A DNA stretch of 64,000 nt, taken from the NCBI GenBank assembly GCA_964468345.1, contig CAYXVZ010000023.1, positions 4,147 through 68,146 on the forward strand, written 5' to 3'. The notes beneath the pieces were generated by a model. The model made no database searches, was not told where the DNA came from, and saw only the letters and a list, made by a program, of their open reading frames with translations. The DNA is from an uncultured Heliobacteriaceae bacterium (GTDB lineage Bacteria; Acidobacteriota; Blastocatellia; RBC074). Below are positions 57,202-60,123 of the stretch, one piece after another (positions within the stretch are counted from its first letter, which is position 1; every line of letters starts with the position of its first letter). The translations under genes were made by a program, and so were the position numbers.

Positions 57202-60123
57202 ATGAAAACCAAAAACAACATGCCATCACAGACAACGGATAAGAATCTGCCTTTGCGGGAAGACATTCGACGCCTGGGCGACCTGCTTGGTCAGACGCTG
57301 CGGCGGCTGGCCGCAAAAGGATTGTTCGAAACCGAGGAGCGCGTGCGCGCCCTCTGCAAAGAGTTGCGGAATTCGCGTTCGCCCAAAGTCGAGCGCGAAT
57401 TGAAACGCCTGCTGCATTCGCTGGATGCGGAAACGACGATCGAGGTGATTCGCGCCTTCTCCGTTTATTTCCAGCTCGTGAACATCGCCGAGCAGCATCA
57501 CCGCATTCGCCGCAAACGGTGGTACGAACTGCATACGCCGGACCAGCCGCAGCGCGGTTCGATCGCGGAGACGCTGCGCGCGATTCGCGCCGAGGGCAAT
57601 GTCACGGCCGCAGAGATGCAGCAGGTGATCGATCGCCTGGAAATCATTCCCGTGATGACGGCGCATCCGACGGAAGCGGCGCGCAGGACGCTGCTCGAAA
57701 AGCATCGGCGCGTGGCCGACCTGCTGGCCGCCTTCGATGAACGCGATTTGCCGGCGCGATTGCGCGAGGAATTGCAGACCCGGCTCGCCGCTGAAATCGA
57801 ATCGATCTGGCAGACGGACGAGGTGCGCCAGACGCAGATGACGGTGCTCGACGAGGTCAATAACGCGCTCTATTATTTTGACTCCACGCTGTTCGATTCG
57901 GTTCCCCGATTGTTGGATGAGCTGGATCGGCAACTGGCGGAAAGCTTTCCCGGCGTCACGCTCAAAGACGGCAGCGCGCCGCTGCGCTTCGGGTCGTGGG
58001 TCGGCGGCGATCGCGACGGCAATCCCTTCGTCAAACCGTTCACGACCTGGGATACGCTGCGCCTGCAACAACGGCTGGTCCTGCGAAAATACCGCGATGC
58101 CGTCGCCGAGCTTTCGCGCCGGATGAGCGAATCGGAGCGCTATTCATCGGCCAGCCGCGAGATGCTGGATTCGATGGAAAAAGATGCCCGCGAACTGCCC
58201 ATCACGGCGGACATCGTGCAGCGGCAAAATCCCGAAGAGCCCTATCGGCGCAAGCTGACCTTCATCGGCGGCCGATTGACCAATACCATCGACCGGAATG
58301 AAGAACTGGAAGCGGCCATGAAGATCGAATCCGGCGAAGGCCTGATTTCGATCCGGCCGGCCCTGCCATTGATCGAACGCCTGGGCCATTCGAAAAGCGC
58401 GAGCAAGAGCGTCTATCGCACCGGCCGCGAATTATGGGAGGACCTGCGTCTGGTTCGCGACAGCCTGCGCGAAGCCAAAGCGGAATACGCCGCGCGCGAG
58501 ATCGACCGATTGATGCGGCAGGTCGCGGTCTTTGACCTGCACCTGGCGACGCTCGACATTCGCCAGCACAGCCAGCGCCACACGGAAGCGCTGGCAGAAA
58601 TCGCAAAAACGATCGGGCTCGATTACGAACACATGTCCGAAGCAGAGCGCGCGGAATGGCTGACGTCGGAACTCTCCACGCCGCGCCCGCTGGTCGCGGC
58701 GGATGCGCGTTTCAGCGAGGCGACGACCGAAACCCTGAATGTTTTTCGCGTCGTCCGCCGCGCGCTCGATGAAATCAGCGGGACGGCGATCCGCAGCTAC
58801 ATCGTGAGCATGACGCGCGACGTCAGCGACCTGCTCGGCGTGCTGGTGCTGGCGAAACAGGCAGTGCTGGTGAATTGCGGATCGCGGATTGCGGATTTCG
58901 GATTGGATGAATCCGCAATCCGCAATCCACATTCCGCAATCGGCGTCGTTCCCCTGTTCGAAACCATCGACGACCTGCAGCGGGCGCCGGATGTGATGGA
59001 ACGATTGTTCACGAATGAAGCTTATCGCGCGCTGCTCGCTTCGCAGGGAAATCTGCAGGAGGTGATGATCGGCTATTCCGACAGCAGCAAGGACGGCGGC
59101 ATCCTGACGTCGAGCTGGGAGTTGTATAAAGCCCAGGAGCGGTTGGCCGAGGTCGCGCGGGCGCACGGCATCGATCTGCGCCTCTTTCACGGCCGCGGCG
59201 GAACGGTGGGTCGCGGCGGCGGGCCGAGCCACGAAGCGATCCTGGCGCAGCCGCGCGGCACGCTCTCGGGCCGGATCAAAATCACGGAACAGGGCGAAGT
59301 CATCTCATCGAAATTCAGTTTGCCGGAAATCGCCCTGCGCAGCCTGGAGTTGACGACCGCGGCCGTCGTCGCGGCGAGCCTGCCCGCGAAAAAGCGAGCC
59401 GGCAATGGGGCTTCGCTCGATCGATGGAAAGCCGCGATGGAACAGATCTCCAGCGACGCGTTTGACATCTATCGCGGCATCGTTCGCGAAACGCCCGGTT
59501 TTTACGACTACTTCACGCAAGCGACGCCGGTCGAAGAGCTGCAATACATGCGCATCGGTTCGCGGCCCGCGAAACGCAAATCCGGATCGAAAAGCATCGA
59601 TGACCTGCGCGCGATTCCATGGGTTTTCGGCTGGACGCAAAGCCGGCACCTGTTGCCGGGCTGGCTGGCCGTCGGCACGGCCCTCGACCGTTTCATTCAG
59701 CAAAAGCCGAAAGCCCATCTGGCATTGCTGCGCGAGATGTATCAGGAATGGCGGTTCTTTCACAGCATGCTCTCGAACATCGAGATGACGCTGGCCAAGG
59801 CCGATTTTCAGATCGCCGAACAGTACGCCGCGCGGACGCTCGATCCCAAACTGGGCGAACGCATTTTCGGAATGCTCAAGGATGAGTATGGCTTGTCCCA
59901 GCAGATGATCCTGAAAATCACGGGCCAGCGGCAACTGCTGGATCAATCGCCCGTGCTCAAACGATCGATTCAGGTTCGCAACCCCTATGTCGACCCGATG
60001 AGCTATCTGCAGGTCGAATTGCTGGCCCGCCAGCGCGGCGGCAAAAAAGAGGATGCCCGCCGGCTCTATGCCATTATGCTGACGATCAATGGCATTGCGG
60101 CGGGCATGAGAAATACGGGTTGA
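57202..60123 (+). CDS. ppc: Phosphoenolpyruvate carboxylase
   Basis: VMTAHPTE, SWVGGDRDGNP, VPLFET, QEVMIGYSDSSKDGG, FHGRGGTVGRGGGP, LRAIPWVFGWTQ, GMRNTG; start could be 57220. Confidence 0.97.
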   Translation: MKTKNNMPSQTTDKNLPLREDIRRLGDLLGQTLRRLAAKGLFETEERVRALCKELRNSRSPKVERELKRLLHSLDAETTIEVIRAFSVYFQLVNIAEQHHRIRRKRWYELHTPDQPQRGSIAETLRAIRAEGNVTAAEMQQVIDRLEIIPVMTAHPTEAARRTLLEKHRRVADLLAAFDERDLPARLREELQTRLAAEIESIWQTDEVRQTQMTVLDEVNNALYYFDSTLFDSVPRLLDELDRQLAESFPGVTLKDGSAPLRFGSWVGGDRDGNPFVKPFTTWDTLRLQQRLVLRKYRDAVAELSRRMSESERYSSASREMLDSMEKDARELPITADIVQRQNPEEPYRRKLTFIGGRLTNTIDRNEELEAAMKIESGEGLISIRPALPLIERLGHSKSASKSVYRTGRELWEDLRLVRDSLREAKAEYAAREIDRLMRQVAVFDLHLATLDIRQHSQRHTEALAEIAKTIGLDYEHMSEAERAEWLTSELSTPRPLVAADARFSEATTETLNVFRVVRRALDEISGTAIRSYIVSMTRDVSDLLGVLVLAKQAVLVNCGSRIADFGLDESAIRNPHSAIGVVPLFETIDDLQRAPDVMERLFTNEAYRALLASQGNLQEVMIGYSDSSKDGGILTSSWELYKAQERLAEVARAHGIDLRLFHGRGGTVGRGGGPSHEAILAQPRGTLSGRIKITEQGEVISSKFSLPEIALRSLELTTAAVVAASLPAKKRAGNGASLDRWKAAMEQISSDAFDIYRGIVRETPGFYDYFTQATPVEELQYMRIGSRPAKRKSGSKSIDDLRAIPWVFGWTQSRHLLPGWLAVGTALDRFIQQKPKAHLALLREMYQEWRFFHSMLSNIEMTLAKADFQIAEQYAARTLDPKLGERIFGMLKDEYGLSQQMILKITGQRQLLDQSPVLKRSIQVRNPYVDPMSYLQVELLARQRGGKKEDARRLYAIMLTINGIAAGMRNTG
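58873..58941. repeat. ttgcgga/atccgca hairpin element in frame inside ppc
   Basis: About 4 heptamers per arm; translates as NCGSRIADFGLDESAIRNPHSAI. Confidence 0.88.

Follow-up and report, generated by a model that had tools for sequence, protein, structure and literature searches.

A heptamer hairpin repeat lies in frame in a variable loop of phosphoenolpyruvate carboxylase and is probably a tolerated, translated insert at a turnover hotspot of the Blastocatellia

We analyzed a 64,000-nt stretch of DNA (referred to here as the window) from an uncultured bacterium, in which a hairpin made of tandem heptamers lies in frame within ppc, the gene coding for phosphoenolpyruvate carboxylase (PEPC; the protein is called Ppc below). 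We consider it probable that this insert is a tolerated, translated repeat, located in a permissive loop of the enzyme that has turned into a hotspot of turnover. It does not go back to one recent event confined to a single genome but is part of a class-wide hotspot with rapid turnover. We infer that the insert is near-neutral, and sequence comparison suggests that it is dispensable, as lineages with a short linker are interleaved with insert-bearing sisters.

The element (69 nt, positions 58873 to 58941) reads aATTGCGG ATCGCGG ATTGCGG ATTTCGG ATT-GGATG-AATCCGC AATCCGC AATCCAC ATTCCGC AATC; its parts are listed in Table 1. Tandem Repeats Finder (TRF) reported two period-7 arrays, 58874-58905 and 58910-58941, each with 4.6 copies and 84% matches. 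The element is predicted to fold into a single long stem at -48.6 kcal/mol; z was -5.3, none of 200 shuffled sequences being equally stable. Compared to equal-length segments of ppc, the element scored z = -3.7 and was stabler than all 59 controls. The copy is imperfect, with best arm matches of 20/22. Codon 578 of the open reading frame (ORF) starts at position 58873, and the element encodes NCGSRIADFGLDESAIRNPHSAI (23 codons), which immediately precedes GVVPLFET. Sequence, TRF, fold, and ORF translation thus agree with the original prediction, which had placed an in-frame heptamer hairpin directly before VVPLFET. The net insert amounts to 63 nt, which equals nine heptamers or 21 codons. In the alignment with the Escherichia coli PEPC structure (PDB 1FIY), the E. 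coli enzyme has about 20 fewer residues at this site, and the claim that its linker is short holds. Predicted Ppc peptides that span the insert are AVLVNCGSR, IADFGLDESAIR, and NPHSAIGVVPLFETIDDLQR.

The host gene is a complete PEPC gene. The ORF matched all 919 positions of the PF00311 profile (1-919, E = 0), confirming the earlier statement that the rest of ppc is intact. PDB 1FIY aligned with E = 1.6e-156 and with the conserved motifs in register, and the ORF carries PLFET, GYSDS.KD.G, and the C-terminal NTG in addition to the full-length profile. The start codon is probably ATG 57163, giving 986 amino acids (aa), the same length as the database protein P0001, which was found in Logan assemblies and is 100% identical to the window Ppc over the searched region. 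An AlphaFold2 (AF2) model of Ppc resembled the PEPC crystal structures 1JQN and 1FIY, with template modeling (TM) scores of 0.80/0.90. In the strand motif that follows the insert, the glutamate (E600, numbering from ATG 57163 as for all residues below) aligns with E506 of E. coli PEPC, which we take from the PEPC literature to be a catalytic metal ligand. The residues P597-L598-F599-E600-T601 were invariant across 61 orthologues. Homologues of Ppc place the organism, an acidobacterium of soil or freshwater, in the Blastocatellia (Acidobacteriota), the best database relatives being 70 to 77% identical. Ten records of metagenome-assembled genomes (L002, L010, L011, L013, L020, L025, L038, L048, L049, and L058), with ppc genes 58 to 71% identical to that of the window, are titled Heliomicrobium, Heliobacteriaceae, or Enterobacteriaceae; these labels look wrong or reflect a name collision. 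The linker types in those of the ten that we examined were the same as in Blastocatellia.

The insert was present in four independent metagenome runs, from a biofilter, freshwater, a biofilm, and a host-labelled sample. In each run, one contig spanned positions 58500 to 59300 (801 nt) without gaps, with 0, 2, 3, and 7 differences; none of the listed differences fell within the repeat. In runs X1, X6, X9, and X17, the word depth, summed over contigs, rose from about 5-30 to about 190-2950 at 58851-58958. This spike is due to GATTGCG-type heptamer arrays on dozens of further contigs in each metagenome; the unit is very abundant in those four communities.

Searches of the element for known signals were negative. 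The terminator scan showed no terminator-like site in the region, the promoter scan of the element gave nothing meaningful, and the Rfam search returned only miRNA-precursor models at 17 to 22 bits, compared to gathering scores of 50 to 168. Among the RNA runs listed, which bear a host species label, none contained sequence words of this organism. The unit GATTGCG/CGCAATC contains no run of three or more G. It is free of stop codons in all six frames, as the original prediction had noted, but so are 50.4% of all heptamers; we therefore rejected stop-freeness as a mark that singles out this unit. The companion claim, that the stop-containing families lie outside genes, agrees with the window: no long ORF in the window spans the CATTTGT/AATGACA (TGACAAA-type) or TATAGG-type families, as simple purifying selection would give.

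The position of the insert in the protein was read from the AF2 model, which was built on 61 orthologues and reached an overall predicted TM score of 0.79. In the model, the repeat-encoded residues 571-593 come after a helix (residues 554-565, DLLGVLVLAKQA) and before a strand (594-599, GVVPLF). Since a helix precedes the insert and a strand follows it, the insert fills a helix-to-strand loop. Insert residues 575-590 had a predicted local distance difference test score (pLDDT) below 50 and were modelled as disordered. Helix-to-strand loops of triosephosphate isomerase (TIM) barrels lie on the barrel face away from the active site. With regard to the surface loop that had been expected, the model shows a helix-to-strand loop with low pLDDT; the surface position itself is an expectation. 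Outside the Blastocatellia, the same loop ranges from 3-4 to 16 residues, and this variation in length marks it as naturally permissive. A second Ppc loop, at residue ~744 of 986 (~window position 59395), carried palindrome-type inserts in 10 of 61 relatives. An example is SSTKTHEENTK…FLRDSSCDFVEE, of an ACGAAG/CTTCGT-type unit family that also occurs in the window at 3971-4066 and 21000-21111. Residue ~72 marks a third variable site.

We compared the protein segment between ...LAK(Q/E)AGL and ...(A/V)xPLFET in 107 orthologues of the Blastocatellia ingroup, which is the alignment of relatives that had been proposed. The site was variable, with linkers of 3 to 51 residues. A minimal linker of 3-4 residues (TELA, TKLA, VLA, etc.) was found in 17 orthologues, and about 69 of the 107 carried repeat-type inserts belonging to at least seven unit families. 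Among these inserts were CGLRIADCG...SAIRNPQSAI (inferred unit GATTGCG-like), GDGATGRRGD...SPRRPV (GGCGACG), GVGNGEWGVG...SPLPTPHSP (GGGGAGT), ...SLNPSIPQS (CAATCCCT), SRIEDRG...SSILDPRSS (GATCGAG), and QISNLKSQI (AATCTCA), together with VPPSGG...PPEGGT, a non-tandem palindrome. The insert peptide was unconserved among close relatives, its sequence being dictated by the repeat unit. A segment conserved as protein without palindromy would have spoken against the original prediction; the opposite was found, as the segment is unconserved and palindromy recurs in relatives with different sequences.

At the DNA level, we examined ppc loci from 59 acidobacterial species, 43 of which had linkers of at least 45 nt. 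An inverted repeat of at least 15 nt was present in 13 of the 43 long linkers, and 9 of the 43 were folding-energy outliers (z <= -3). Stems in relatives reached -97 to -100 kcal/mol with different units. The stem unit was GATTGCG in L006, L007, and L200, GGAGTGC in L012, GAATGCG in L019, GATTGCA in L025, and of the GGGCGAC type in L053. In L013, L051, and L057, the linkers were decayed or the arms non-complementary. The reading frame across the linker was kept in all 59 loci, including the 43 with long linkers; six loci missed by one or other pattern search were read separately for this check. Frame conservation despite 7-nt units is strong sequence evidence that selection acts for an intact gene that would be translated, and, together with the intact host gene, it upholds the claim that PEPC tolerates a repeat-derived peptide. 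When inserts were matched to repeats in the 3- to 10-kb flanks of each species, the window alone was positive, with three copies, in a comparison where the flanks were mostly coding and the array finder noisy.

To follow turnover at the loop, we used FastTree or quick IQ-TREE phylogenies, with the linker removed for class counts; support values are to be read accordingly. On the tree without the linker, insert class changed at least 48 times, and the distinction between short and long linkers required at least 12-13 gains or losses (13 changes on this tree). An IQ-TREE subset contained six sister pairs (P0008/P0031, P0080/P0099, P0063/P0093, P0009/P0082, P0041/P0110, and P0033/P0081; 1 to 7% protein divergence) that joined a minimal linker to an insert of 25 to 51 residues, with Shimodaira-Hasegawa-like approximate likelihood ratio test (SH-aLRT) values of 96 to 100. 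P0110, which has the minimal linker VLA, was nested inside P0053+P0041, both of which bear one homologous element; deletion back to the minimal loop therefore does occur. In P0060 (VDCGLRIA), the element looks partly deleted. Alleles with the diagnostic loops TSIKSA, KEDLNLPISSS, and GNSVFSPLP were interleaved among proteins less than 3% different, as in P0071+P0046 (support 99) and P0016+P0115/P0117 (support 98), a pattern indicative of recombination across the conserved flanks or of an old polymorphism being sorted. The TSIKSA loop occurred with three arm peptides (CGLRIADCG, EGGRRKAEGG, and ECGTRNAECG, as read from the peptides). Moreover, L006/L007, L012, and L008/L015 contained pure and mixed arrays whose units differed at one position, with the difference matched in both arms. 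One loop with different arms and matched unit changes indicates that arms are rewritten unit by unit while the site remains unmoved. The window copy grouped with P0005, whose unit is related, and with four short-linker proteins that form a clade. Given this grouping and its imperfect arms, the window copy is not a fresh insertion.

The ppc element has relatives elsewhere in the window. The pattern ATTGCGGATTGCGGA, allowing up to 2 mismatches, gave 17 matches compared to 0.48 expected, and these matches form three elements: 50971-51112, 58874-58941, and 63543-63634. On all three, TRF found period 7 and 4.1 to 6.6 copies per arm. The kinase copy sits in the activation loop, and the Pkinase domain (98-371) spans the insert as one stretch. 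The lpx copy begins at the acyltransferase stop codon (TGA 50970-50972), and its right arm runs into what may be the 5' end of lpxB. A start at ATG 51075 would give MTNSAIRNPQSAIPLLLVAGEASGD, with the right arm encoding MTNSAIRNPQSAI ahead of the conserved LLLVAGEASGD; as the match of this product to the LpxB profile begins at residue 16, the true lpxB start is uncertain. The kinase copy also adds a second "DFG" to its host protein (…DFGLAKIQELRNADFGMW…NPHSAIRNPQ…).

Table 1. Coordinates of the ppc element, its host gene, and the two other copies of the GATTGCG family in the window
Feature	Position	Strand	Remarks
ppc, phosphoenolpyruvate carboxylase (ORF)	57142..60123	+	993 aa from TTG 57142
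ppc element, left arm	58874..58904	+	~4.5 units of ATTGCGG; with the preceding A encodes N-CGSRIADFG
ppc element, hairpin apex GGATG	58905..58909	+	from the dot-bracket fold; inside the codons for L-D-E
ppc element, right arm	58910..58941	+	~4.5 units of AATCCGC; encodes SAIRNPHSAI; ends one codon ahead of GVVPLFE
GVVPLFET, conserved beta-strand	58942..58965	+	from the 1FIY alignment
Kinase copy, GATTGCG family	63543..63634	+	in frame between DFG and P+1/APE of a Ser/Thr kinase (…DFGLAKIQELRNADFGMWIEDSDGVNSTNPHSAIRNPQLTPPGLVMGTVTYMSPEQ)
lpx copy, GATTGCG family	50971..51112	+	between a lipid A acyltransferase gene (Lip_A_acyltrans, upstream) and lpxB

The loops of the three window copies are unrelated (GGATG versus ~40 nt and ~65 nt). 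We found no core common to the three, only the heptamer arms being shared, and no target-site duplication at any of them, the flanks being GTGA/CGGC (ppc), AGGA/TAAC (kinase), and ATTG/TCCA (lpx). Likewise, the L016/L018 pair, an empty and a filled ppc site that differ by a clean 78-nt insertion just after the Gly-Leu codons, lacked a target-site duplication. Without a shared core or duplications, the copies are not classical MITEs (miniature transposable elements with inverted repeats) or Rickettsia palindromic elements (RPEs), and with unrelated loops the "family" is defined by its unit alone. Many more families with 7- to 9-nt units in the same arrangement were detected in the window by TRF.

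Beyond the window, a metagenome scan for exact (GATTGCG)4 arrays hit at least 120 contigs. Among 77 listed arrays away from contig ends, 40 lay within ORFs having at least 60 codons on either side; many arrays among the listed matches were single-armed. All 10 arrays tested were flanked by Pfam domains, in genes for a response-regulator receiver, IspG, ArgRS, a histidine-kinase ATPase, a sulfatase-domain protein, three PSCyt/PSD1 proteins, HrpB, and a U32 peptidase. These Pfam-confirmed genes and the in-frame kinase copy sustain the earlier view that the element family adds protein sequence. On contigs L097, L119, and L159, the proteins have PSCyt1, PSCyt2, and PSD1 domains, with an NPQSAIRNPQ array inside PSD1; in L097 and L159, this array is preceded by one of the GDKG type (…RGQGDKGNPQSAIRNPQ…). 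This suggests that PSD1, a domain of an unrelated protein family, is one more place where in-frame repeats recur.

According to our model, the ppc element would be a member of a repeat class abundant in Acidobacteria, hairpins whose arms are inverted tandem arrays of a 7- to 9-nt unit. With a stop-free unit and a net length of 63 nt, the ribosome would read through the element, and the enzyme would gain NCGSRIADFGLDESAIRNPHSAI as a disordered loop. The peptide would be a by-product of the DNA repeat, its sequence unselected. Across the Blastocatellia, hairpins of different unit families have been gained in this loop and deleted back to a linker of 3-4 residues, with both arms rewritten unit by unit, probably through slippage plus hairpin-templated repair or gene conversion. 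Close relatives have probably swapped elements by homologous recombination via the highly conserved flanks.

Several points weigh against this model. Translation through the element is deduced from one kind of sequence evidence, the conservation of the frame. In addition, hairpin repeats fill one loop in about two-thirds of the orthologues, and palindromy is kept while the sequence changes; both would also be expected from a selected DNA or RNA structure or from structure-targeted insertion. Neutral tolerance alone fails to explain an occupancy far above that of other variable Ppc loops, and selection on the hairpin and structure-targeted insertion are the sole readings that explain this excess directly. 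Finally, the model does not account for the process by which one unit spreads to many loci. We see limited room for a bolder idea: that the Ppc linker is a hairpin "landing pad", where a long DNA or RNA hairpin, and not any particular sequence, is conserved class-wide. We can only tentatively suggest what would maintain it, either a structure-specific, transposase-less process that installs and rewrites hairpins or a selected hairpin, e.g., one that paces translation between the PEPC barrel halves. If this were true, the sites of over 100 orthologues, with empty, filled, and rewritten ones interleaved, would form a natural time series of that process.

Selection on the hairpin as a structure, be it a translational pause between the barrel halves, a site for RNase III or for mRNA stability, or a signal for replication or recombination, seems unlikely to us. 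It would explain why palindromic inserts of at least seven unrelated unit families recur at a single site, and why occupancy is high compared to other variable Ppc loops. However, minimal-linker orthologues are sisters of insert bearers that diverge from them by 1 to 5% in protein sequence, fewer than a third of the long linkers (13/43) retain an inverted repeat of at least 15 nt, with only 9 at z <= -3, and many linkers are decayed or non-complementary (L051, L057, and L013). The same repeats also occupy many unrelated genes and spacers, and the terminator, promoter, and Rfam searches found no match. Matched changes in both arms, such as GCGGATT/AATCCGC in L006 and GCGGAGT/ACTCCGC in L012, fit a selected hairpin but are also expected from hairpin-templated repair or fresh insertion.

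Structure-targeted mobile DNA is, in our judgment, also improbable as the source of the hotspot. Here, a trans-acting enzyme would insert elements into existing hairpins or a site feature, and the hotspot would reflect targeting. Nested or composite elements (in L015, for instance, GGAGTGC arms enclose a CGCAATC array) agree with this, as do the repeated replacement of families at one site, the presence of the GATTGCG unit at many loci and in many metagenomes, and the resemblance of L016 versus L018 to a clean insertion. The missing target-site duplications, the lack of a shared core among the window copies, and the many single-armed arrays argue the other way, and the interleaved identical-loop alleles (TSIKSA and KEDLNLPISSS) equally fit recombination or lineage sorting.

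It is very doubtful that the insert is adaptive as protein, for example as a loop through which PEPC is regulated or interacts, with the DNA repeat being incidental. Blastocatellia frequently have inserts and an identical form persists in strains ~1% diverged, but the peptide changes with the repeat unit between close relatives, AF2 predicts disorder, and minimal-linker enzymes are common. An assembly or binning artefact, with the repeat collapsed into the ppc contig, can practically be discarded: the word depth does increase ~100-fold over 58851-58958, but the region is spanned by single gapless contigs in four independent runs, the identical P0001 occurs in Logan assemblies, and dozens of other assemblies hold homologous inserts.

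We then compared the ppc element with known systems. RPEs (Ogata et al. 2000), the precedent for palindromic repeats in frame, span ~150 bp; their consensus is conserved, and so is the peptide it encodes (PMC10969869). Both systems are dispersed palindromic repeats found in frame in unrelated housekeeping genes, with the gene intact and the peptide compatible with the fold. The acidobacterial elements are multicopy (three in 64 kb) and in frame with the host ORF intact (ppc and the Ser/Thr kinase). Unlike the Rickettsia elements, they showed no full-length consensus with a conserved peptide: the copies share only the 7-nt unit, their loops are unrelated, and the number of units varies. At the ppc site, moreover, the occupant is replaced by other unit families within 1 to 5% protein divergence.

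Heptameric simple sequence repeat arrays have been reported for Xanthomonas (GGGAATC) and Nostoc [GGGGA(C/T)T, or short tandemly repeated repetitive (STRR) sequences] (Rehm et al. 2015, PMC4692102). Xanthomonas has 70 to 75 convergent inverted array pairs per genome that are able to form stem-loops (PMC4692102). The units in both genera are rich in G-tracts and were studied as G-quadruplex formers; they are mostly intergenic and were not described as translated (PMC4692102). These arrays are the architectural precedent; our elements share with them tandem 7-nt units, a variable copy number, dispersal, and paired inverted arrays. In contrast, GATTGCG has no G-tracts and does not match the G-quadruplex unit GGGNATC, and coding sequence is not under-represented, with two of the three window copies in frame in genes and 40 of the 77 listed arrays in long ORFs, at least 10 of them intragenic. 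Two further systems, in Nematomorpha and in Borgs, are related in concept. In the mitochondria of Nematomorpha, both arms of coding palindromes encode conserved regions under amino-acid-level selection (PMC6649704). These are also long, near-perfect inverted repeats within functional genes with both arms translated, whereas the ppc arms encode a non-conserved, dispensable loop.

Borg elements hold direct tandem repeats in ORFs that evolve fast and give intrinsically disordered regions (PMC9879509). Both systems involve recent, fast-evolving in-ORF repeats that add disordered segments, and they differ in that the ppc element consists of 7-nt units in inverted arrays. The unit lengths of the Borg in-ORF repeats are reportedly divisible by three; with 7-nt units, the frame is kept by total length only. 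Repetitive extragenic palindromic (REP) sequences and bacterial interspersed mosaic elements (BIMEs) are imperfect palindromes of 20 to 40 bp with a GTAG or CGTC head and an association with REP-associated tyrosine transposases (RAYTs). Like these and MITEs, our elements are small, hairpin-forming, dispersed repeats of non-coding origin without their own transposase. The ppc element has no GTAG or CGTC head, its arms being tandem heptamers, and it differs from MITEs in having microsatellite-like arms and neither a conserved core nor terminal inverted repeats bounded by target-site duplications. Our literature search for heptamer hairpin repeats in Acidobacteria found no paper.

These observations suggest that microsatellite-armed hairpin repeats, described so far mainly as intergenic, may be routinely translated inside essential enzymes of Acidobacteria. 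One defined PEPC loop has many times acquired, lost, or rewritten its insert. More than 100 phylogenetically resolved orthologues with empty, filled, and replaced sites provide a resource on how repeats spread and are homogenized. The same data set bears on the lifetime of perfect palindromes inside genes and on how new disordered protein segments arise from repeat DNA. From a practical perspective, such inserts make proteins appear more divergent, cause assemblies to break (as seen from the depth spike), and mark permissive sites for PEPC engineering.

Two other palindromes of the window were observed. The first (60135-60184; CTTATAGGACCTATAAGA, a 9/18-nt unit in 2.8 copies) lies in a 57-nt gap between convergent stop codons. 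It is located between the ppc stop (60123) and a minus-strand gene ending at 60181, and it overlaps the stop codon of the latter. The second (21000-21111) is a hairpin of the ACACGAAGAG/CTTCGTGTGA family in a stop-free minus-strand frame of 1399 codons (17804..22003). We rejected this CTTCGTGTGA copy as a translated in-frame insert: the Pfam domains of this frame (Sortilin/BNR) do not start until residue 479, which probably places the hairpin upstream of the true start codon.

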